64,000 nucleotides of DNA from an uncultured Gammaproteobacteria bacterium (lineage in GTDB: Bacteria > Patescibacteriota > Patescibacteriia > Magasanikbacterales > UBA922). The notes below the pieces were generated by a model that was not told the origin of the DNA, did not search any database, and saw nothing but the letters and a program-made list of their open reading frames with translations. This document shows positions 2,149 to 56,300 of the stretch, one piece after another. The position numbers were made by a program, and so were the translations under genes. The DNA is taken from positions 140,330-204,329 of the forward strand of contig CAYFPM010000002.1 in NCBI GenBank assembly GCA_964345045.1, given 5' to 3'. Positions within the stretch are counted from its first letter, which is position 1. Every line of letters starts with the position of its first letter.

Positions 2149-3531
2149 CTAATTGTCTATCTTTTGCATTTGTTTCACTTCTTTTATCTTTTTCACTGCC
2201 GGTTTTTTCTCATTAATTTTTTTGGCCTTTTCTCTAGCATCTTCCAATTTCTTTTTGTCTGCTTCGCGTTTGTTCTCTACTTTCTTTTTTGCTCTTTCCA
2301 AAGCCTTTTTGGCAGCTTCTTTTTTATCCTCATCTTCTATATTTTCTAGTTTGTTTTTAGCTCTTTCTATAGTTTTTTGTTTTACTTCAGCCTTATTTTC
2401 TATAACTTTTTTCTTAAGCTCTGTTTTGTTTTCTATATCTAGACCTCGTTCTTTTATTTCTGATTTTACTTCTTTTTTGATCTTATTTTTTATAACTCTT
2501 TCTTTTACATTTTCCTTACGGTTTTCTTTTCTTTCTTCATTTACCTTTTTCAATTTGTCGGTGGTAGCGTTCAAAATTCTCAAACGCTTTTTGGCCTCTT
2601 CATCTCCTTCGGCAGCTCTTTCTTGCAAATTTTCTTTTTTGGCACGGTATTCTACTCTAATTTCGTGAACTCTTTCTTTTTTCTTATCTCTCAATTCTTG
2701 TAATTCTTCTCTGGCACTTTCGTCTCCTTCTTTGGCTGCTTGCAGTAGAGTATTTCTTTTTTCTCTATACTCTTTTACAGCTTCGGCGTGTTTTTCTACT
2801 CTTGTCTTTACATCTTGCAAATGTTCTCTAACTCTTTCTGGAACATTTTCATTATCAATGGCATTTAGCAACCGACGAGCTCTTTCTTTTTGATTATCAC
2901 GAAGTTGTTCAAATCTTTCTCTTTTTTCTTCTGGCAAACGGTCTTCTACTTTGTCCAAAATTCTCTCACGTCTTACCTGGTGGGTAGCAATATTTTTTAT
3001 CAATCTCTCAACTCTTTCACCACCATTTTCCAAAAAATCATCTTTCCTTTCTTCTACTCTGGCCATAAATTGGTTGGCTCTCTCTATCATGGCTTCGGCT
3101 CGCTCTTGCATAGCCGGGTTATCAATTTTTTCAGAAAGTTTTTCTGCAATTTTAATTCTTTCTTCGGCAAATTTTATTTGTTTTTCTGCTTTTTTGACTG
3201 GATCAAAAGTTACAGCCAAACTAACTCTTTCTCTTACATTTCTCCAAAATAATCCAAACCCAGATGGAGCTGTTTCTACTTCTTCTATTTCCAAACCTTC
3301 TAATTCTTCTTCACCAATTTCTTCTTCCAATTCCTCTTCTATCTCTGCTGCCGCTGCATCATCTTCTGCTATTGCAACAACTTCTACTTCTGCAGTTGTT
3401 TCTACTTCGAGAGAAGTCTCGTCTGTTTCTGTTTGTGCCAAAGCTGGAGCAACAAACAACAATGAGATAATAAATGCTACTACCATAAGTAGCCAAAAAT
3501 TCTTCAAACTCTGCGTCATATTTTTATACAT
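2149..3531 (-). CDS. secreted K/E-rich coiled-coil protein (signal peptide plus long charged low-complexity region)
   Basis: N-terminus MTQSLKNFWLLMVVAFIISLLFVAPALA, followed by E/K/R-rich heptad-like sequence over about 400 aa. Confidence 0.55.
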   Translation of the reverse strand: MYKNMTQSLKNFWLLMVVAFIISLLFVAPALAQTETDETSLEVETTAEVEVVAIAEDDAAAAEIEEELEEEIGEEELEGLEIEEVETAPSGFGLFWRNVRERVSLAVTFDPVKKAEKQIKFAEERIKIAEKLSEKIDNPAMQERAEAMIERANQFMARVEERKDDFLENGGERVERLIKNIATHQVRRERILDKVEDRLPEEKRERFEQLRDNQKERARRLLNAIDNENVPERVREHLQDVKTRVEKHAEAVKEYREKRNTLLQAAKEGDESAREELQELRDKKKERVHEIRVEYRAKKENLQERAAEGDEEAKKRLRILNATTDKLKKVNEERKENRKENVKERVIKNKIKKEVKSEIKERGLDIENKTELKKKVIENKAEVKQKTIERAKNKLENIEDEDKKEAAKKALERAKKKVENKREADKKKLEDAREKAKKINEKKPAVKKIKEVKQMQKIDN

Positions 3532-3578
3532 TAATAATATATATACATTATAATACTTTTACGCAAATCAAGAAAGAA

Positions 3579-3607
3579 TTGACCATAAAAGACTTGTGTC
3601 GTAAAAT
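3579..3607 (+). promoter_or_regulatory. sigma70-like promoter (TTGACC-17-TAAAAT) driving leaderless xerD
   Basis: TTGACC at 3579-3584, a 17-nt spacer and TAAAAT at 3602-3607. ATG at 3614 sits at the expected transcription start. Confidence 0.5.
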
Positions 3608-4588
3608 ATGTACATGAAACTATCAAAATATCTCCGTCAATTCCTAGAGTATCTAGAGATTGAAAAAAATCGTAGCCACAAAACCATTGAAAACTATAAT
3701 TTTTATCTTAGTCGCTTTTTGGATTGGTTTGGAGACAAAGATCCAGGAAAAATCGATATTGAATCAGTCCGCCAATATAGATTATGGTTGAATAGACTAA
3801 TTGATGTACACGGAGAACCTCTAAAGAAAAATACTCAAAATTATCACCTAATTGCGCTTCGATCATTTTTGAAATATCTAACAAAACAAGATGTAAAAAC
3901 CATGGCTCCAGAAAAAATTGAGTTAATGAAAATGCCAGACAGAGAAGTCACCTTTCTCGAAGGAAGTGATTTGAATAGAATCTTGGAAGCCCCCTTGATT
4001 GTTTACAAAGATGCTACAGCCGGTCAAATCCAGGCAAAATATCGCGACAAAGCCATCTTGGAATTACTATTCTCCACAGGCTTGCGTGTATCGGAATTGG
4101 CTAATTTGAAAAAAGAAAATGTTAATCTAAAGAAAGATGAGTTTACAGTAACAGGAAAAGGAAGGAAATCTCGAGTAGTCTTTTTGTCCGAACAATCCAG
4201 GTACTGGTTAAAAAAATATTTAGAATCTAGAAAGGATCTTAACCCTTATTTATTTATTTCTCACGACAAAAGAAGCAAACACGAACGTGGGGTAAAAAAA
4301 TCAGGAGGCAAAATGCAATCGGATGAACAACCCATAACATCAAGATCTATCCAAAGACTAGTAAAAAAATATGCCAAAGCAGCTGGTATCACCAAACCGG
4401 TTACTCCACACACATTGCGTCACTCTTATGCTACCGATCTACTCCAAAACGGAGCCGATATCCGCAGTGTTCAAACTATGCTTGGCCACTCTTCTATCAC
4501 CACTACCCAGATTTATACCCACATTACAGACAAAGAGCTAAGAAATATTCACAAAAAATTTCATGGTAAAAAAAGAGACGAAGATTGA
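3608..4588 (+). CDS. xerD: tyrosine site-specific recombinase XerC/XerD family
   Basis: N-terminal SAM-like domain (ENYNFYLSRFLDWF) and C-terminal catalytic motifs LRHSYATDLL and GHSSITTTQIYTH (R..HxxR..Y). The likely leaderless start is at 3614. Confidence 0.8.
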   Translation: MYMKLSKYLRQFLEYLEIEKNRSHKTIENYNFYLSRFLDWFGDKDPGKIDIESVRQYRLWLNRLIDVHGEPLKKNTQNYHLIALRSFLKYLTKQDVKTMAPEKIELMKMPDREVTFLEGSDLNRILEAPLIVYKDATAGQIQAKYRDKAILELLFSTGLRVSELANLKKENVNLKKDEFTVTGKGRKSRVVFLSEQSRYWLKKYLESRKDLNPYLFISHDKRSKHERGVKKSGGKMQSDEQPITSRSIQRLVKKYAKAAGITKPVTPHTLRHSYATDLLQNGADIRSVQTMLGHSSITTTQIYTHITDKELRNIHKKFHGKKRDED

Positions 4589-13345: not shown

Positions 13346-13416
13346 TTAGGCAACAGGCATTAGTAACTAGAAAAACACTATTGCCTATTCCCTATTCCCT
13401 ATTGCCTGTTGCCTAA
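13346..13416. repeat. intergenic palindromic element ttaggcaacaggcat ... attgcctgttgcctaa (family member b)
   Basis: 15-nt inverted repeat. The centre contains tactattgcc and three cctattcc direct repeats. Confidence 0.55.
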
Positions 13417-14210
13417 CTACCAGTAAGCCCACGGATAACTGTATTCAAAATAGCATAGGCCGAAAATATAACAGCCAACCCGATTACCGCATAAAGCATG
13501 GTATTGGTTCCTTTTTTTACTCTTTCTGGATTTCCTGCCGAAGTAAGCCACATTACTCCCCCAGCAAAAAAGACTAACAAAGTAATAGATCCAATCACAG
13601 CCATAGCATTTCTAATCACATCGGCTACAATTACTCGCAAATCTGTTTTTTCTGGATCACTCCCCAAAGGATTTTTTAAACAAAAAACTCCCGGATCATC
13701 ACATCTGTCTTTGGTTGTCCCAGCTCCACCGGCACTCTCGGTTCCTTCTGCCAGAGTACAACCTAGTGAAAAATTAACAGATTGCCCGGCAGAACCAACG
13801 GAAACAGTCTGCGATATGCTAGATGTTTCACAGGTGTTAGCATCGAGACTTACAGAAGCAGCTACATTTGGGTTAGCCATAATAGCAGCCGGAGCGCCGG
13901 CTTGTTGGACTTGGCTACACCCAGCATCCTTGGCAGCAGCAAACGCCGAGGCAATAGTCTGATTTAGATCCAAACTAGATCCCAAAGCAGTGTTGTTGGT
14001 AAAGGCAGCATCATTACAAGCTGGAGTAGTGCTTTTTATACTAGTAACACAACGACAGACCTCGGCTGCCTGGGCTGGGTTTGGTGACAGAAGACTGGAA
14101 AAAAATATAGCCCCCAAAACAAATACAAATAAATTTATCTGTTTTATTGCCACCCTTTGGGTGATCAGCCGAAGGCTGGCTTTATTACTTTTTTGCTTTT
14201 TTGTTTTCAT
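13413..14210 (-). CDS. secreted Cys-containing protein with a C-terminal TrbC/VirB2-like pilin core (paralog 10, permuted domain order)
   Basis: Signal peptide, variable ectodomain, then VIRNAMAVIGSITLLVFFAGGVMWLTSAGNPERVKKGTNTMLYAVIGLAVIFSAYAI at the C-terminus. Confidence 0.55.
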   Translation of the reverse strand: MKTKKQKSNKASLRLITQRVAIKQINLFVFVLGAIFFSSLLSPNPAQAAEVCRCVTSIKSTTPACNDAAFTNNTALGSSLDLNQTIASAFAAAKDAGCSQVQQAGAPAAIMANPNVAASVSLDANTCETSSISQTVSVGSAGQSVNFSLGCTLAEGTESAGGAGTTKDRCDDPGVFCLKNPLGSDPEKTDLRVIVADVIRNAMAVIGSITLLVFFAGGVMWLTSAGNPERVKKGTNTMLYAVIGLAVIFSAYAILNTVIRGLTGS

Positions 14211-23278: not shown

Positions 23279-23307
23279 TTGACAAAAAGTTAATTATAGA
23301 GTAAGAT
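23279..23307 (+). promoter_or_regulatory. sigma70-like promoter TTGACA-17-TAAGAT for Zn-ribbon gene A
   Basis: TTGACA at 23279-23284, a 17-nt spacer and TAAGAT at 23302-23307. Confidence 0.45.
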
Positions 23308-23326
23308 CTTACATCGATCTTTTTTT

Positions 23327-23394
23327 CACTATTGGGCACTATCTTTATCAAACTTTGGTAACGATTGTGCCCAATAGCGGATTAGGCAACCGCA
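23327..23394 (+). promoter_or_regulatory. conserved leader element A (dyad TTATCAAACTTTGGTAA plus gtgcccaa hairpin)
   Basis: About 62 of 66 nt are identical to the leader at 24836-24893. It lies between the promoter and the ATG. The dyad is at 23345-23361. An inverted repeat attgggcac/gtgcccaat flanks it. Confidence 0.45.
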
Positions 23395-23411
23395 ATTTTT
23401 AAGGAGACAGG

Positions 23412-23801
23412 ATGCAAGCTTGTTTGATTTGTGGGGCGAATACCCCCACCAGCGACGACTTCGAGAGAAACAACGACGACGACTTCGCACGTTTGCAAGT
23501 GTTCAACGGGAATGAACATCGATTCGTCGTGATCTGTGGTGGTTGCTGCGGGGCTCCGGAACCTGTCCTGCTGGGGGTGAACTTGACTGGCCCCGTGTCT
23601 ACAACCGGTTTCAAGATCAAAATCCCCGGGCAAATCCCCAGTCACACCAACATTGCATGGACGCTCGAAGACATCTTGCGCCGCATGATCCAAGGAGCCA
23701 GGGTCCCCGAGCTGACCGATGCGCACATCGCGAAGTTGCTCGAGGCCTTCGGGATCGCCCCCTCCCCCACCCAGCCCCATACTCTCCGTTGGCTGGCGTA
23801 A
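23412..23801 (+). CDS. small Zn-ribbon protein A (129 aa), GC-rich foreign-like gene
   Basis: Motifs CLIC...CGGCC. RBS AAGGAG 6 nt upstream of the ATG. GC-rich codon third positions. Paralog of the ORF at 24910. Confidence 0.5.
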   Translation: MQACLICGANTPTSDDFERNNDDDFARLQVFNGNEHRFVVICGGCCGAPEPVLLGVNLTGPVSTTGFKIKIPGQIPSHTNIAWTLEDILRRMIQGARVPELTDAHIAKLLEAFGIAPSPTQPHTLRWLA

Positions 23802-23919
23802 AGTAGCGGCCTGCTACAGCGGTAGCCCATATACGCACCAGAGTGCGGGCGTACCAAAGGTACCCTGCGCTCGCCCCTATCTCAATTCTTTTTAAAATTA
23901 AAAGTAATTGAAATAAACA

Positions 23920-23948
23920 AAATCCAACACTACGTTGGATTTTGTTTT
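23920..23948 (+). terminator. intrinsic terminator
   Basis: Hairpin atccaac-actac-gttggat followed by TTTGTTTT. Confidence 0.7.
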
Positions 23949-23979
23949 GCAAAAATTTTTGAACCAAAACTAAATACAC

Positions 23980-24008
23980 TTGACAACCCTGCCAGAAAAT
24001 GATAAACC
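23980..24008 (+). promoter_or_regulatory. putative promoter (TTGACA, weak -10)
   Basis: TTGACA at 23980-23985. Candidate -10 elements are GATAAA or TAAACC. Confidence 0.3.
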
Positions 24009-24039
24009 AAAACCAAGTTCACTCTGTAGGAGGAGTACT

Positions 24040-24600
24040 ATGAATAACTTGGAACTGGCCGACTTCGGCATCTCCGGGACCCCCGGCTTTGCCCAGATCG
24101 CCTTCCTCACAACACCCACCCCTACCCAGAACCTTCATGGCATGCTTCGAGCCTTTTTGGCACCAGAGGACGGACTCTGCGACAATCCCCGAGACCTTCA
24201 AGCCAAGATGCTTCGGCTCTCTCGAGACCTCGGCAGACACACCCTGATGGATGAGTGTACTCAAAATTGCTGGGGCAAGCTCTATTACGATAGACGTGTG
24301 AAAGAGCGCAACTTCAGACTATTGATGATTGTCTTCCCGGATCCACTGGTTGCCCTAGGGGTGGCCTTGGACGCCGCCAGCGAGGATCGCGGAGGACTAG
24401 GCAGAATGATAGTGCCCGACGAGGATGTCCGGGCGCAAACCACTGGACTCGATCGTAACAACTACAATTGGTCCAGACCCGAACGCACTGTCCGCCATCG
24501 AAAAGACGGTGCCACCTTCGTTTACCCAGGTGGCAAAAGGCTTCGAATCGACTGGCCCGAACGGCCACCGATGCGTACCCGCTGGCTCAGATCTTTGTAG
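24040..24600 (+). CDS. hypothetical protein (186 aa), GC-rich island gene
   Basis: AGGAGG is 7 nt upstream of the ATG. Translation MNNLELADFGISGTPGF... . No family recognised. Confidence 0.45.
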   Translation: MNNLELADFGISGTPGFAQIAFLTTPTPTQNLHGMLRAFLAPEDGLCDNPRDLQAKMLRLSRDLGRHTLMDECTQNCWGKLYYDRRVKERNFRLLMIVFPDPLVALGVALDAASEDRGGLGRMIVPDEDVRAQTTGLDRNNYNWSRPERTVRHRKDGATFVYPGGKRLRIDWPERPPMRTRWLRSL

Positions 24601-24689
24601 GTAGCCACCGCGCTACCAACCCTAGCGACGAGTTACCCCCTCGTCCTCCCATTCCAATTCTTTTTAGCTTTAGAAATAATTGGACTGTA

Positions 24690-24723
24690 CAAAAACCGAC
24701 TGTGTAAGTCGGTTTTTGTTTTG
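24690..24723 (+). terminator. intrinsic terminator
   Basis: Hairpin aaaccgact-gtgta-agtcggttt followed by TTGTTTTG. Confidence 0.7.
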
Positions 24724-24755
24724 TAAAAATAGTTCTACTAACTTTGGCAAAACAC

Positions 24756-24784
24756 TTGACAAAAACCAAACAATTCTATAACCT
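24756..24784 (+). promoter_or_regulatory. sigma70-like promoter (TTGACA ... TATAAC)
   Basis: TTGACA at 24756-24761. TATAAC at 24777-24782 (15-nt spacer) or TAACCT (17-nt spacer). Confidence 0.45.
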
Positions 24785-24835
24785 AAGTCGTTGTTCTTTG
24801 TAGGAGAAATGCTCAGCATTTATTTCGCCGTTTGA

Positions 24836-24893
24836 CACTGTCTTTATCAAGCTTTGGTAAAGATTGTGCCCAACAGCGGACTTGGCACCCGCA
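24836..24893 (+). promoter_or_regulatory. conserved leader element B (dyad TTATCAAGCTTTGGTAA plus gtgcc/ggcac hairpin)
   Basis: Paralogous to leader A. The dyad is at 24844-24860. A hairpin GTGCC-N13-GGCAC follows. Confidence 0.45.
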
Positions 24894-24909
24894 TCGACCC
24901 GAGGTAATC

Positions 24910-25242
24910 GTGAAAACTTGCATCGTCTGTAATACCCAAACCGTGAAAACCAGTGGCAGTGGATGTGCAGATCCAAGGCTGGAAATCTACAACGGAGGAA
25001 CCGAAGTGTCTCGGTGCATCTGCCCCAAGTGCTGCCAGGCTCGCGAGCCCATCGTGCTCACGGTCTCAAGCTCTGGAGAAGTCGCCCAGCAGCGCATCGG
25101 CAGTGAGACCAACACCGTAAACCGCCTGCCGCTCGCTCAGGTTCTCGCCGCTCTCCAACAAGCAGAGCACATCCACCTCACCGGCAATGAGGTCGCCCAG
25201 ATCACCCGTCACTTCAACGCCCCTCTAGCAGCTGCCAGCTAG
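24910..25242 (+). CDS. small Zn-ribbon protein B (110 aa), paralog of A
   Basis: GTG start after GAGGT. Motifs CIVC...CICPKCC. A shared C-terminal pattern (LT..E.A.I...F) with protein A. Confidence 0.45.
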   Translation: MKTCIVCNTQTVKTSGSGCADPRLEIYNGGTEVSRCICPKCCQAREPIVLTVSSSGEVAQQRIGSETNTVNRLPLAQVLAALQQAEHIHLTGNEVAQITRHFNAPLAAAS

Positions 25243-25352
25243 ATGAGCAACGAACAGAGCGGTGGATACAGCCATACAACTTGGCTCACTCCACCGCTCG
25301 ATCCCAAAAAAGTTATAAATTAAAAAACCGGCTTAGACCGATTTTTTTGTTT

Positions 25353-51485: not shown

Positions 51486-51640
51486 CAAAAAATATCAAGA
51501 GTGAGGATAGCGACTTGGCGCCACAACCCTCTACCAACCGAGCTTAACTACGGTGGTTCCAACCCCAATGGGAAAGATAGGCCTTTTAAACAAAAGGAAA
51601 ATAAGGAGTTTCTTATCTTATCCGGGTAAGAAATTTTTGT
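51486..51640 (+). ncRNA. candidate SAM-I (S-box) riboswitch with an intrinsic terminator expression platform
   Basis: P1 UAUC/GAUA. J1/2 AAGAG. Segments resembling the S-box consensus (AUCAAGAG, ACCAACC, GGUGnUUCC, GAAAGAUA). A terminator hairpin tttctta-N11-taagaaa plus a U-run lies at 51607-51640, about 75 nt before the ATG. Confidence 0.45.
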
Positions 51641-51716: not shown

Positions 51717-52649
51717 ATGAAAGACGGAAAAGACACTTATTTCTTCAGCGATTGCTTTCAACACGGAAGCTCCCAATTTGATCCGAATGCCGCCTCCCGA
51801 ACGATGGCTCGCTTTCGCAAGATTAGTAGACAAATCAGGCCAGAAGTATCCCCACCTTTCCTCGACAGACAAGGAGCTTGGCGAGGGACTGACCTAGGTT
51901 TTCTGATGGCCGAGTTGGCTCATCAACACACAGGGCTGGTCATTGGTGGAAATGCTGCCAAGCGAATCCCTGGGAAAAAAAACGGAACTTCTTTTTCTTT
52001 GGCAACGGTAGGTGGCAACCTAATCCTTTCTACTGTGGGCAAAAACACCTACCCAGTAATGGCTCGTCTTCTTGGGCTAGACTCAATCGAAGTTGCCCTC
52101 CTCGATATCGGAAACGCTGCCCAGAAGATGAATGTCCAAAACAAAGAAAGGATGACAACCACTCAATACCGTTCGCTCTGGTTTCAAACAGCGGCTTTGG
52201 CTCAGCTGGCTCACCTCGAAACACTCCCCACTCACCCAAATTCGATCTTCGGCGGGGAAGTAAAAACAATCAAGCCTGACAGCGGAATGCGAATTGTCTA
52301 TATCGATAGCTTCGGAAACTTGAAGCTCTCTGGTAGAAGAAAAGACTTGCCCAAGGGAGAAAGAATCAAGGTCTCTTTCCCAGAAAAAGCACATCGAAAC
52401 CTCTCGCCACTTGGAGCGAACAACACAGCACATATCACAGGTGGAAGGGAAAACGAATTTCAAGTTTCAGTCGGATCAAGTATCCCTACCGAAGCAGGCG
52501 GTCTACTAGAACTCCAAATCCTCGGTGGAACTAGGATAGGAGTCGATACGGCTGCAGACAAAGTTCTAGGGCACTTCCTGGGCGTCCCGGACGTTCGCTG
52601 CCATCACGACCTCATAGGTATCAAAGTGAGGCTCAGCAAAGCCTCCTAA
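51717..52649 (+). CDS. DUF62-like protein (SAM hydroxide adenosyltransferase / SalL-FlA family), GC-rich gene
   Basis: N-terminus FFSDCFQHGSS. Central YRSLWFQTAALAQLA. C-terminal domain IVYIDSFGNLKLS resembles the D.FGN motif of DUF62 enzymes. Foreign-like codon usage. Confidence 0.4.
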   Translation: MKDGKDTYFFSDCFQHGSSQFDPNAASRTMARFRKISRQIRPEVSPPFLDRQGAWRGTDLGFLMAELAHQHTGLVIGGNAAKRIPGKKNGTSFSLATVGGNLILSTVGKNTYPVMARLLGLDSIEVALLDIGNAAQKMNVQNKERMTTTQYRSLWFQTAALAQLAHLETLPTHPNSIFGGEVKTIKPDSGMRIVYIDSFGNLKLSGRRKDLPKGERIKVSFPEKAHRNLSPLGANNTAHITGGRENEFQVSVGSSIPTEAGGLLELQILGGTRIGVDTAADKVLGHFLGVPDVRCHHDLIGIKVRLSKAS

Positions 52650-52673
52650 AACCTTCTATTAGTTTTGGCACAA

Positions 52674-52737
52674 ACGCAGGAAGCAGATTGAGTCTAGTCG
52701 ACAAACCTACGTCGATTGAGATTCTCGCTTCCTGCGT
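52674..52737. repeat. long imperfect hairpin acgcaggaagc...gcttcctgcgt after the DUF62-like gene
   Basis: Arms of about 28 nt with a few mismatches. No T-run follows. Confidence 0.4.
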
Positions 52738-52930
52738 TCGATCCATCTCTAAAAAACAATTATAACAACCTTACAAAAAAAGGTTTTTTATTTGTTTTTT
52801 ATAATTATATTGTACGACATTATTTATTATTTAATTTTAGTCATTTTTTACAAAAAATTAACAAGGGTAACTCTTCCTCCAAAACAATTTTACAAACCAC
52901 TCCTCTCAAACCACACCCTCAGACAAAAAA

Positions 52931-52946
52931 TGTTCCACGTGGAACA
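52931..52946. promoter_or_regulatory. perfect 16-bp palindrome TGTTCCACGTGGAACA (site 1)
   Basis: Exact self-complementary 16-mer with a CACGTG core. It shares flanking sequence ...tttgatt..gattt with site 3. Confidence 0.5.
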
Positions 52947-53089
52947 TTTTGATTCTAGATTTTTGGATTATGATTTCAAAAATCAAACATATCGCACCTC
53001 ACTTCAATTAAACCAAAATTTTACCTTATCTCGGTTTTGTTGGAACAAAATCAAATCAATAATTCCAAGCTCTTACATCTGCAATCATT

Positions 53090-53105
53090 TGTTCCACGTG
53101 GAACA
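53090..53105. promoter_or_regulatory. perfect 16-bp palindrome TGTTCCACGTGGAACA (site 2)
   Basis: Exact copy lying 60 nt downstream of the Ham1-like gene. Confidence 0.5.
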
Positions 53106-53164
53106 AAACAACAGCCTAAAAGCTGTTATTATTTTGTATACAATAGTGTGTACAATTATACTTT

Positions 53165-53773
53165 TTATTTTAAATATTCTTCTATAGATTTATCAAACAC
53201 TTCTTGTAAGTCGCTATATGCCAATAGATTTTCCTCTCTTTTCATTTCTGCATGAAACTTACCCAGTTTCTGGTTGTAGCAAAGTGCTGACAAAGGTAAC
53301 CCTGAAATATAATGGGGTTGATTGTCTACAAGTTTGAAAGCAAATTCTCTATTGTAGGCAAATTCTATTATTTTTCCTTCTGCAGTACAGATAGCAAAGG
53401 CAAAATGCCATTTGCCTCCTGTTAAGTTTTTTTCAACAATTTGTTTGTGCCAATAATCATATATTTCTTTATCTGTGGCTCTGGTCTTACCATCAAAAAT
53501 TCTTCTAGCATGCACCCCTGGTTGCTCAGCTTCTGAGATTTCATCTACAAACAGAGCAATGTCTACAGCCAAAACATCTGTTTTAAATTCACGAGAGTAT
53601 ACACTAGCCTTATATTTGGCGTTTTTTTCGGCAGTTTCAAAAGGCTCCTCAACTTCAAAATCAACAGAAAAATCATTCAAAGACTTAATCTCCAAATTCT
53701 CATATTTGACAAGGTAATGAGAAAAAAATTCCAATTTTCCAGAATTAGTTGTAGCCAAAGTTAATTCTTTCAT
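53165..53773 (-). CDS. Ham1/RdgB-family non-canonical purine NTP pyrophosphatase-like protein
   Basis: N-terminus LATTNSGKLEFF resembles the ITPase motif LATGNxGKxxEF. About 200 aa. Confidence 0.5.
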   Translation of the reverse strand: MKELTLATTNSGKLEFFSHYLVKYENLEIKSLNDFSVDFEVEEPFETAEKNAKYKASVYSREFKTDVLAVDIALFVDEISEAEQPGVHARRIFDGKTRATDKEIYDYWHKQIVEKNLTGGKWHFAFAICTAEGKIIEFAYNREFAFKLVDNQPHYISGLPLSALCYNQKLGKFHAEMKREENLLAYSDLQEVFDKSIEEYLK

Positions 53774-53816
53774 TCAATAAATACTACTGATTACCCAAAG
53801 TAAGAAGACGATCAAT

Positions 53817-53832
53817 TGTTCCACGTGGAACA
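53817..53832. promoter_or_regulatory. perfect 16-bp palindrome TGTTCCACGTGGAACA (site 3, 44 nt upstream of the Ham1-like start)
   Basis: Exact copy in an operator position for the gene at 53165-53773. Confidence 0.5.
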
Positions 53833-53920
53833 ATTTGATTACGGATTTATGAATCTTGATTGCTAAATTTTGGTTGATTAAAGAATATTCCAAAATCAAA
53901 AATCATAATTCAGAAATTCA

Positions 53921-54053
53921 TTGTGCCCCCACCAGCCCGCCAGAGGCGGATCACCCGAAGGGTGAGAATCCCAGCCTCCGGCTGATGACCCGTAGGGTCA
54001 GAACCTAGATTTAGGCGTTAGGAGTGCCTCGTTCCCAGCCTGCCACTGCCTGT
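53921..54053. other. GC-rich structured element of unknown nature next to tRNA-Arg(CCT)
   Basis: A series of short GC hairpins (ccgcc-aga-ggcgg, caccc-gaa-gggtg, gaccc-gta-gggtc, ccta-gatt-tagg). Its end, ggtgggggcaca, repeats the tRNA 3' acceptor sequence gacgggggcaca. Confidence 0.25.
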
Positions 54054-54125
54054 GCCCCCGTCACGAATCGAACGTGAACCCAAAACTTAGGAGGTTTTTG
54101 TTCTATCCATTAAACTACAGGGGCA
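54054..54125 (-). tRNA. tRNA-Arg (anticodon CCT)
   Basis: Minus-strand GCCCCTG-TA-GTTT-AATGGATA-GAAC-A-AAAAC-CTCCTAA-GTTTT-GGGT-TCACG-TTCGATT-CGTGA-CGGGGGC-A. Confidence 0.7.
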
Positions 54126-54170
54126 TTGGCACTGGCGGGCAGGTATCCATTGAACTACAGGGCTTAACTT
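54126..54170 (-). other. partial duplicate of the tRNA-Arg 5' region (GCCCTGTAGTTCAATGGATA)
   Basis: Lies immediately 5' of the tRNA and matches its first 21 nt except for 2 nt. It does not continue into a cloverleaf. Confidence 0.3.
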
Positions 54171-54322
54171 AGGTAAAAATAAGTGTCGTACAATTATTCT
54201 AATGATCTATTCTTACAAACCAGAGTAGGCTATTCAAAAAAATAATTTCTGTTATACTACTTTTACTATATAAACGAACAAACCTAGTCTAGCTAGGTTT
54301 GTGGAAAAAATCAACCTTATAT

Positions 54323-55447
54323 ATGGAAAATATTCTACTTACAATTGTTTCACTCGGTCTTGCTGCCGCTGTAGGCGTAATCTTTTTTATGTTCAAGAAG
54401 TTATCCGATTTGCAGCAAGGCAAAAATTCTGGAGACGAAGAAAAAAACATGTTTGTCATGCTGCAAAACCAAATGCAAGATCTAGCCAAAACTTTTGACA
54501 ACAAAATGGGGGAGACGCACAAAACCATGCACGCCACTCAGCAAGATATTAACAAAACTTTGCAAGAACAATTTGGTCACAATACCCGATTGATCCAAGG
54601 TGTTACGAGCCAAAGCACCAAAATGATTGCAGACATCACCGAGAAACTTACTAGTCTTGATAAAACTAATCAACAAGTGATTGGTTTTTCTGAACAGCTA
54701 AATAACTTGGAAAAAGTTTTGAAAAGCCAAAAACAAAGAGGGAATCTGGGCGAAGCTGGTTTGCAACTAGTGCTAGAAAACATTTTGCCTCCAACTGCTT
54801 TTTCTATTCAGCATAATTTTAAAGATGGTGACACGGTGGACGCAGCTATCTTTACCAAAGATGGGATTATCCCAGTTGATGCCAAATTCTCTTTGGAAAA
54901 TTATCAAAAACTAATTGACGAAACCGATGAAAACCGCAAAGCCACGCTAGAGCGAGAATTTAAAAATGATTTGAAAAAACGCATTGACGAAACTAGTAAA
55001 TACATAAAACCAAAAGAGGGGACACTCGATTTTGCCTTTATGTTTATTCCGAGCGAAGCTATTTATTATGATCTCTTGGTAAACGAAGTTGGCGCTGTCA
55101 AAGTTAACACCAGAGATTTGATTGATTATGCTTTTAATGAAAAGAAAGTGATTATAGTTTCACCAACTACTTTTGCTGCTTACCTCCAAACAGTTTTGCA
55201 AGGTTTGCGCGCACTCAAAATTGAAGAAGGAGCCAAGAGTATACGAAAAAATGTGGAGATGCTGGGTAAACATGTCAAAGCTTACGAAGAATATATGAAA
55301 AAGCTTGGCAGCAGCATGACCACTACTGTAAATCATTACAACACAGCTTACAAAGAACTAGGCAAGATTGATAAAGACGTGATGAAAATAACTGATGGTG
55401 AAAAAATGATTGAGGTGGAGCAGATTGAGCGGCCAAAAGGGGAGTAG
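54323..55447 (+). CDS. rmuC: DNA recombination protein RmuC
   Basis: N-terminal TM helix plus coiled-coil. C-terminal RmuC nuclease-like domain ([34 protein letters not shown]). Confidence 0.75.
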
Positions 55448-56053: not shown

Positions 56054-56300
56054 TTTATCAAATACTACTAACCACTACAAACTAATATTTATCTGTAAAA
56101 TCTAAAAATGAAACTGGGGTCTGGGGTAGCAGCTAAGCGCCCATCTAGAAAAGATAGACTTTACCGATGCCAATGTGAGCGATTCTGCACCCCAGCAGTT
56201 TCCTGCCTACCGGCAGGCAGGTTGGTTACTTTTTGCTGTCAAAAAGTAACACTTAGAAAGCTAACCTTTTATTTATTAAACAAAGCTATTAATCAAAATC

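Follow-up and report, generated by a model that had tools for sequence, protein, structure and literature searches.

A Probable tRNA Replacement Cassette Inside a Resident tRNA-Arg(CCT) Gene, With Associated GC-Rich Hairpin Elements, in a Patescibacteria Genome

Organization of the tRNA-Arg(CCT) Locus

The 64,000 nucleotide (nt) stretch of contig CAYFPM010000002.1 analyzed here (assembly GCA_964345045.1, positions 140,330 to 204,329, termed the window; GC content 38%) carries on its minus strand an intact gene for tRNA-Arg(CCT) at 54052/54053-54124 (ARAGORN; Rfam tRNA, 62.2 bits) that lies within the pieces of another gene for the same tRNA. The segment 54163-53922 (minus strand) consists of a single older tRNA-Arg(CCT) gene interrupted by three insertions (Table 1), namely a 109 nt cassette at 54143-54035, which is inserted at tRNA position 21/22 at the D-loop/D-stem junction and contains the intact gene, and two double hairpins in the T-arm. 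The older and the enclosed genes are referred to as outer and inner, respectively. No partial copies were found alongside the remaining tRNA genes of the window (Arg-TCT, His, and Ala-GGC).

The original prediction for this locus, made from the sequence alone, had pointed to a near copy of the tRNA 5' end upstream of the intact gene, an echo of its 3' end downstream, and a GC-rich hairpin stretch of about 130 nt, all of which were recovered. The near copy GCCCTGTAGTTCAATGGATA at 54144-54163 matched tRNA positions 2-20 with 95% identity over 19 nt, and a search with this 20-mer allowing up to three mismatches returned three matches versus 0.00 expected, the third being the unrelated tRNA-Arg(TCT). 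The echo TGTGCCCCC was an exact 9 nt repeat at 53922-53930 and 54051-54059; taken alone as a 12-mer it was within chance (four matches versus 1.9 expected), and it is meaningful only in context because it is the 3' end of the outer tRNA. The hairpin stretch resolved into four perfect 5 bp GC hairpins arranged in two pairs, with both T-arm inserts consisting of paired 6 base pair (bp) hairpins with 3 nt loops.

The outer gene was recovered both with and without removal of the insertions. An nhmmer profile of the tRNA-Arg(CCT) genes of relatives, run without any excision, aligned 54034-54001 with profile positions 22-55 (E = 1.8e-4) and 54162-54144 with positions 3-21. The 54001-54034 segment reads GAAC-G-AGGCA-CTCCTAA-CGCCT-AAAT-CTAGG-TTC, with anticodon loop CTCCTAA and anticodon CCT. 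Excision of 54143-54035, 54000-53971, and 53965-53936 yielded the 73 nt cloverleaf GCCCTGTAGTTCAATGGATAGAACGAGGCACTCCTAACGCCTAAATCTAGGTTCGATTCCTGGTGGGGGCA, identified by ARAGORN as tRNA-Arg(CCT), in which the T-loop TTCGATT was canonical and the cassette junctions (GGATA on one side and GAAC on the other) restored the D-arm exactly with no duplicated bases. Contrary to the original prediction, which had found no second cloverleaf, 54001-54034 and 54144-54163 belong to this second tRNA-Arg(CCT), which folds after excision. Acceptor pairs 1-72 and 2-71 of the rebuilt tRNA were broken according to ARAGORN and the outer copy is therefore a pseudogene. The cassette arms are imperfect inverted repeats unrelated to tRNA sequence, and the helix that they can form was read as beginning flush at both junctions, with left-arm C1 pairing with the last G of the right arm.

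Table 1. Features of the nested tRNA-Arg(CCT) locus and of related palindromic elements in the window.
Feature	Coordinates	Strand	Evidence or remark
Conserved upstream motif TTGTACGACA, promoter-like (putative function)	54184..54193	-	Exact match; ~20 nt upstream of outer 5' piece
Outer (older, resident) tRNA-Arg(CCT) positions 1-21: acceptor 5' strand (one C lost), D-stem 5' strand, D-loop	54144..54163	-	
Cassette left arm CCTGCCCGCCAGTGCCAAT, 19 nt	54125..54143	-	First 10 nt near-invariant over 20 independent cassettes
Inner intact tRNA-Arg(CCT), working gene, foreign	54053..54124	-	ARAGORN; Rfam RF00005, 62.2 bits
Cassette right arm CAGGCAGTGGCAGGCTGG, 18 nt, pairs with left arm	54035..54052	-	Inverted repeat
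Outer tRNA positions 22-56: D-stem 3' strand, anticodon arm, variable region, T-stem 5' strand, TTC	54001..54034	-	nhmmer; ARAGORN after excision
30 nt double hairpin TGACCCTACGGGTCATCAGCCGGAGGCTGG in outer T-loop, between C56 and G57	53971..54000	-	
Remaining outer T-loop and first T-stem 3'-strand base (GATTC)	53966..53970	-	
Second 30 nt double hairpin TCACCCTTCGGGTGATCCGCCTCTGGCGGG	53936..53965	-	
Outer T-stem 3' strand (CTGG), acceptor 3' strand TGGGGGC, discriminator A, then CA	53922..53935	-	
Third double-hairpin copy	14150..14179	+	In frame, 10 codons (ASLRLITQRV), N-terminus of type IV secretion system (T4SS) pilin-like gene
20 nt palindrome CCTGCCTACCGGCAGGCAGG	56202..56221		Built from CCNGCC/GGCNGG motif, as cassette arms

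What looked like duplicated ends are both ends of a single older tRNA gene, with the working gene enclosed between them. They had been interpreted as attachment (att) scars, attL and attR, of an integrase; the part of this claim that invoked insertion into a tRNA gene stood, and the part that invoked two copies of one core made by an integrase did not, the flanks being complementary pieces around a 109 nt insert with arms of its own. A classical island that entered the tRNA gene with an integrase and was later mostly deleted would account for a working gene flanked by partial tRNA copies, and archaeal integrative elements do leave 5' tRNA fragments (Sugahara et al., 2012; PMC3293823). Such an origin is nevertheless extremely unlikely as the flanks correspond to positions 1-21 and 22-73 of one tRNA rather than to duplicates of one core, and the insert can hold no integrase because it is only 109 nt long.

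The alternative that 53921-54051, the GC-rich segment, encodes a small structured RNA of its own, also raised by the original prediction, drew on its many stable hairpins and on the folding of the whole 256 nt region, which was better than that of shuffled sequences (z = -4.3). The 131 nt segment alone folded only marginally better than shuffles (z = -1.99), it decomposed fully into tRNA positions 22-73 plus the two 30 nt insertions, it had no Rfam match at E <= 10, and it was absent at the orthologous position of close relatives, such that a separate RNA gene is scarcely credible. The exclusion by eye of a transfer-messenger RNA (tmRNA), signal recognition particle RNA, or RNase P RNA was upheld, since ARAGORN reported no tmRNA and Rfam no such family at the gathering score or at E <= 10, and the ARAGORN check for tmRNA and for permuted or second tRNAs returned nothing in the flanks. 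The segment was thus neither assigned to an Rfam family nor found as a conserved core region in the closest relatives, at whose orthologous position the sequence was missing. A hammerhead ribozyme was also considered for the plus-strand CTGATGA...GAAC at 53981-54004 and rejected, as the GAAA core and an Rfam match were both lacking; this look-alike is the T-loop/hairpin junction read in reverse.

The nested structure was not confined to a single assembly. It was identical as a whole in a contig attributed to another run (ENA ERR2281803, L234), and a Logan contig from a third run (ERR2281802, L235) was identical across 224 nt upstream of its Ham1-like gene, to ~53997, where it terminates within the hairpin segment. 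An assembly artefact was ruled out by the identity of L234 throughout and by the same architecture in unrelated assemblies.

Resident and Incoming tRNA-Arg(CCT) Copies

Orthologous loci were collected through the neighboring RmuC gene, for which relatives 57-79% identical were present in 80 species-level metagenome-assembled genomes (MAGs) of Candidatus Magasanikbacteria (Patescibacteria, also known as the candidate phyla radiation), the group to which the genome of the window belongs. The syntenic set comprised 43 RmuC-linked loci holding tRNA-Arg(CCT), that is, 42 genome MAGs plus the window. The outer copy was 88-92% identical to the syntenic functional tRNA-Arg(CCT) of the nearest relatives, while the inner copy reached at most 82% identity to any syntenic relative tRNA and 72% to its own outer copy.

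A conserved motif upstream of the gene supported the same assignment. The sequence TGTACGAC occurred within 200 nt upstream of tRNA-Arg(CCT) in 10 of the 43 related loci (~0.1 expected from the background density); in un-nested genes it preceded the 5' end by 29-51 nt, and in the window it preceded that of the outer gene by 29 nt. As the outer copy matches the relatives and its 5' end lies at the customary distance from the motif, the outer gene is the resident in its original place and the inner gene the incomer. Besides its copy at 54184-54193, TTGTACGACA was also present at 52810-52819 in an apparently non-coding stretch (52650-53165).

Inner and outer copies differed by compensatory stem changes (e.g., in L119 and L048), and therefore both were working tRNAs before they were joined. 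In-situ duplication, whether in tandem or of a long target, was ruled out by these compensatory stem pairs and by the outer rather than the inner copy matching the relatives.

Gain of the Cassette and Decay of the Outer Gene

Different states of the locus were preserved in a clade of four genomes (L040, L041, L044, and L048) with RmuC proteins 90-96% identical. The site was empty and the resident allele uninterrupted in L040; the same resident allele was split by the cassette in L048, where the outer gene was nearly intact with a mutated anticodon loop; L044 retained the cassette around a degenerate outer gene; and L041 kept only the inner allele and a 3' outer remnant that holds a double hairpin. 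Outer copies were degenerate also in L001 and L016. Across all cases the inner copies were always intact and the outer copies ranged from perfect to almost gone.

These states bear on the possibility that the cassette is an intron-like insertion and that the outer tRNA is still functional, the inner tRNA being freed by RNase P and RNase Z and the outer halves being held by the arm helix in a split-tRNA-like manner or ligated. Features compatible with an intron include insertion in or at the edge of tRNA loops at positions 21/22, 36/37, and 56/57 with exact junctions, a possible GC-rich arm helix of ~16-18 bp, and intact cloverleaves with the right anticodon in about half of the outer copies. 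Against it, outer copies decay and inner copies never do, as in the window, where the acceptor stem of the outer copy is broken and a further 60 nt are inserted, in L048 with its mutated anticodon loop, in the degenerate L044, L001, and L016, and in the nearly deleted L041. In addition, the flush helix at both junctions leaves no bulge-helix-bulge motif, and no group I or group II intron was detected in the Rfam search of 53700-54400 at E <= 10. An intron-like state is accordingly very unlikely. The data support insertion, takeover, and decay, and speak against a maintained intron.

Recurrence of the Cassette

Partial tRNA-Arg homology adjacent to the intact gene was detected by nhmmer in 7 of the 43 syntenic loci, to which reading by eye added about six loci with smaller remnants, giving roughly 13 of 43. 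The same arms were present in six syntenic loci (five MAGs and the window). Metagenomes were further scanned with a pattern of the D-loop/arm junction, ATGGWTA+CCTGCCCGCC, which returned 120 loci, of which ~30 were true nested tRNAs and the remainder chance 17-mers in GC-rich DNA. In total, at least 25 independent contigs carried this cassette with its arms CCTGCCCGCC...GGCAGGCGGG, as a rule exactly 109 nt long, the hosts of the gene-in-gene design being related bacteria and unassigned metagenome contigs. Excision of the cassette allowed ARAGORN to recover the outer tRNA in 13 of 22 distinct events.

The cargo always matched the gene that it interrupted. Inner and outer anticodons were identical in all 11 readable cases, with Arg(CCT), Arg(TCT), Arg(CCG), Arg(GCG), and Pro(CGG) read on both copies, and for Arg(TCG) in L209 and Ile(GAT) in L107 the isoacceptor match was judged from the 5' outer piece alone. 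The center of the inner copy was 44-94% identical to its own outer copy across cases.

Within the arms, the outer 10 bp (CCTGCCCGCC/GGCAGGCGGG) were near-invariant, including a C.A mismatch in 20 of 20 cassettes and a T.G pair in 18 of 20, while the inner portion was variable with some compensation. The inter-arm distance was exactly 89 nt in 17 of 24 single-level cases, which corresponds to the 109 nt unit of the window. Nesting reached three levels in L021. The arms were flipped relative to both the inner and outer tRNA in L167 and L179 (CCCGCCTGCC...GGCGGGCAGG), and cargo-less arms occurred as hairpins of 38-47 nt in dead tRNAs of L003, L215, and L148.

A single long case was found in L109 (279-2935; metagenome contig Ga0214472_10089954), where the arms enclose 2.65 kb. 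This was the only long candidate when an autonomous copy with arms enclosing an enzyme gene was sought, and besides its tRNA it holds only an ABC-type permease. The absence of an integrase between the same arms in the at least 25 contigs, and the content of this long case, add to the points against att scars. Scans of viral contigs with arm patterns gave only chance matches in GC-rich coding DNA, by which a phage or plasmid origin was also rejected.

Several of these loci had further features of their own. In L021 (Magasanikbacteria RIFCSPHIGHO2_02_FULL_48_18, 3500-3700), the outermost 5' piece of tRNA-Arg(CCT) has a double hairpin containing the 20 nt palindrome, and the next downstream tRNA (Ala-CGC) is preceded by the left-arm-like ACCTGCCCGCTAT. 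The flipped arms of L179 and L167 lie at other sites (anticodon loop and D-arm 11/12), inside ordinary D-loop cassettes. In L148 (metagenome contig Ga0180007_10102601, ~270-400), a tRNA-Pro(CGG) with the same arms is situated inside the anticodon loop of another tRNA-Pro(CGG), and a second case on this contig is a nested tRNA-Arg(CCT) whose outer copy bears the cargo-less arm hairpin at position 37/38. The 2.65 kb content of L109, a tRNA-Arg(CCG) and a 792 amino acid FtsX/MacB-like ABC permease on the opposite strand, may be a large cargo or a later insertion, and the contig may be of non-Patescibacteria origin.

Interpretation and Proposed Mechanism

The arrangement is most probably a gene-in-gene (“Russian doll”) tRNA in which a replacement cassette lies inside the resident tRNA-Arg(CCT) gene, accompanied by hairpin elements, and we place the probability of this interpretation at roughly 0.8. 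According to the proposed sequence of events, the resident tRNA-Arg(CCT) would have been interrupted between positions 21 and 22 by the 109 nt cassette, which would bring a complete tRNA-Arg(CCT) from another lineage flanked by arms able to form a ~16-18 bp helix directly beneath the inner acceptor stem. The inner gene would then take over the function and the redundant outer gene would decay, in the window by loss of an acceptor-stem base and gain of two 30 nt double hairpins in its T-arm. The inner gene lacks space for its own promoter and is therefore probably transcribed from that of the resident gene, upstream of the outer 5' piece, and ordinary RNase P and RNase Z cuts probably release the inner tRNA. 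The GC-rich arm helix probably insulates folding of the inner tRNA from the outer halves, which are nearly identical to it. Selection may enforce the isoacceptor match, since a cassette would be viable only if it replaces the gene that it destroys.

In our reading, the cassette is a small selfish or replacement element that encodes no protein and is tolerated in an essential single-copy tRNA gene only because the tRNA that it supplies is of the same isoacceptor. Loop preference, the lack of a target duplication, and an imperfect hairpin with fixed mismatches suggest an enzyme working on folded single-stranded DNA, our best guess being a trans-acting one whose substrates are loops in hairpin or cloverleaf DNA. 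Among ten unassigned open reading frames (ORFs) of the window, including those of an island at 23.3-25.3 kb, a Pfam scan detected no nuclease, transposase, or integrase. Descent from a miniature inverted-repeat transposable element or other DDE-transposon derivative was rejected, imperfect inverted arms being present and a target-site duplication absent.

Several observations weigh against a replacement cassette. Neither a target-site duplication nor a free or circular form was seen, and no insertion enzyme was identified. Perfect cloverleaves were still formed by 11 of the 22 outer copies and residual outer function is therefore possible. The cargo diversity (44-94%) is not simply explained by a single cassette lineage hopping between genomes and therefore requires repeated exchange or capture of cargo. 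The predominance of site 21/22 is partly built in because the metagenome scan pattern forced the D-loop junction. For the hairpin elements, the 99% pairing of the family is circular as its members were gathered by demanding hairpins.

The arms could instead be RNA processing or insulating helices, or breakage-prone palindromes, with the nested allele arising or spreading through homologous recombination or transformation among related genomes, or through capture of a tRNA fragment where the palindrome breaks, and no dedicated mobile-element enzyme. Such an origin would agree with a cargo that is often close to the outer copy (centers 79-94% identical in L100, L170, L185, L048, and L188), with the lack of an enzyme gene associated with the cassette, and with the cargo-less arm hairpins in dead tRNAs. 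It would also agree with an invaded state that is not monophyletic by RmuC identity, the closest pair being L040 (empty) and L041 (filled) at 96%. The near-invariant arms, with their mismatch in every cassette and their constant length across unrelated contigs and tRNA species, exceed the needs of a clamp and therefore argue against it, as do the occurrence of arms in both orientations relative to the cargo (L167 and L179) and at several loop positions, also in tRNA-Pro. An origin without transposition is consequently regarded as unlikely, although less so than an intron-like state.

A more specific proposal is that the locus represents an undescribed class of minimal selfish element, a protein-less tRNA-replacement cassette of ~109 nt with near-invariant arms that enters tRNA loops of its own isoacceptor, seizes promoter and function, leaves the resident copy to decay, and can itself be invaded again to give Russian-doll loci. 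This proposal is tentative, with odds that we set slightly below even. If true, the cassette would be active across the Patescibacteria and possibly beyond, together with related palindromic elements of 20-47 nt that target tRNA loops, and a trans-acting activity recognizing hairpin or cloverleaf DNA would be implied.

Double Hairpins and Small Palindromes

The two T-arm insertions of the window belong to a family of 15 hairpin copies that share a 6+3+6/6+3+6 design of 30 nt; three copies lie in the window and others in many further loci. Double hairpins were situated in dead copies at positions 12/13 (D-arm) and 56/57 (T-loop) of tRNA-Arg and tRNA-Ala remnants, for which the canonical tRNA loops represent the empty sites; one family copy, in L006, was at a site other than a tRNA fragment. 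D-loop copies come after the tRNA's own GTAG and T-loop copies do not. The first double hairpin of the window recurred in the D-loop of L178, an unrelated contig, with three differences (each loop and the last base). The third copy in the window lies in a T4SS-pilin-like gene (PF18895; ORF 13413-14210, minus strand) whose closest homologue is without the ten hairpin-encoded residues. The accumulation of hairpins in dead outer copies may be explained by lethality, since insertion into a working single-copy tRNA gene would be lethal.

The CCTGCCTACCGGCAGGCAGG palindrome was also identified at unrelated sites in the relatives L001, L006, and L013, and in L020 inside a tRNA pseudogene. We read the double hairpins and the 20 nt palindrome as probable small mobile palindromic elements that are related to each other. 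In the window the palindrome falls within 56108-56260, a GC-richer region between rpsT and a LysM/M23 peptidase gene that has long-range pairing (CTGGGGT.GCAG ... CTGC.ACCCCAG) followed by the palindrome and then by a terminator-like hairpin. This region may be an unannotated small RNA, with no convincing Rfam match. A different 14 nt palindrome, GTTCCACGTGGAAC, had exact copies at 52932-52945, 53091-53104, and 53818-53831 (0 expected by chance), all within 1 kb of the tRNA locus, and variants (GTTTCAYRTGAAAC) were present around the tRNA-Arg locus in many relatives.

Comparison With Known Systems

Mobile palindromic mini-elements of AT-rich reduced genomes include the Rickettsia palindromic elements. 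GC-rich palindromic mini-elements are further known as the GC clusters of yeast mitochondria (Wu and Hao, 2015; PMC4478555) and the double-hairpin elements of Allomyces mitochondria (Paquin et al., 2000, referenced in PMC4478555). The hairpins described here resemble all three in being short, GC-rich, protein-less units of one or two hairpins in an AT-rich genome, with stems kept and loops variable, whose copies are scattered over unrelated sites, among them RNA genes and in-frame positions within protein genes. They differ in belonging to a bacterial lineage of free-living type (Patescibacteria), in a length of only 30 nt, in a strong preference for tRNA D- and T-loops in the loci examined, and in that the related arm element can carry a whole gene as cargo.

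Conserved GC-rich palindromes reportedly flank the mitochondrial tRNA genes of Neurospora, in work by Yin, Heckman, and RajBhandary from 1981. The Neurospora palindromes have been proposed as processing signals or as mobile DNA. The elements of the window likewise are highly conserved GC-rich palindromes that adjoin tRNA genes in an AT-rich genome, but here the two halves bracket one tRNA and the whole unit lies inside another copy of that tRNA. The repetitive extragenic palindromic (REP) sequences and bacterial interspersed mosaic elements (BIMEs), mobilized by REP-associated tyrosine transposases (RAYTs), and the IS200/IS605-derived elements are small imperfect hairpins that move as single-stranded DNA substrates without target-site duplication, the imperfection giving strand identity. 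The cassette shares the small imperfect hairpin and the lack of a target-site duplication, a likeness that serves as a lead only, and differs in that its arm hairpin is split around a cargo.

Disruption of tRNA genes by a mobile element has been modeled in Archaea (Sugahara et al., 2012; PMC3293823). As in that model and in integrative elements and islands that target tRNA genes and restore them, the insertion is in a tRNA gene, a replacement tRNA sequence is supplied, a displaced old fragment remains beside the working gene, and events are repeated at one locus. Unlike in these elements, the insert is 109 nt without a recombinase and supplies a whole tRNA instead of a 3' part, the old gene remains as two complementary pieces around the new one with no duplicated att core, and the insert is bounded by conserved imperfect inverted arms that bear no relation to the tRNA.

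Patescibacteria are already known for unusually many interrupted tRNA genes, and the only paper found on these genes concerns anticodon-loop introns of group I (Nakagawa et al., 2026; PMC13011429). The nested genes are similar to these and to archaeal non-canonical introns and split tRNAs in that a loop is interrupted and GC-rich helices join the halves. They are distinguished by the lack of a bulge-helix-bulge at the junctions, by the lack of a ribozyme (Rfam negative), by an intervening sequence that is itself a tRNA, and by decay instead of maintenance of the interrupted gene. A full-text literature search found no description of a nested-tRNA cassette. The locus extends these known kinds, and there is a fair chance that it represents a distinct class of minimal selfish element.

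If this interpretation is correct, essential single-copy tRNA genes in tiny genomes may be replaced by horizontally acquired alleles through a compact and recognizable vehicle, leaving dated “fossils” of the previous allele as a direct record of tRNA turnover. The nested genes would also provide a bacterial route at the DNA level to interrupted or fragmented tRNA genes, bearing on the origin of tRNA introns and split tRNAs, and would extend the GC-rich palindromic mini-elements of mitochondrial style to the Patescibacteria. They could account for the odd partial matches reported by tRNA finders beside tRNAs in these genomes, and the near-invariant arms with a conserved mismatch point to a specific recognition activity.

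Other Features of the Window

The island at 23300-25300 is GC-rich (~0.51 versus 0.38 for the window) and contains only short ORFs; three tested ORFs had no Pfam match and no Rfam family reached the gathering score. It could be foreign DNA or a non-coding element. A SAM-I/IV (S-adenosylmethionine) riboswitch was identified at 51487-51613 (45.6 bits, above the gathering score), upstream of an ORF at 51717-52649 for which the only match, a weak one, was to the C-terminal domain of SAM hydroxide adenosyltransferase.

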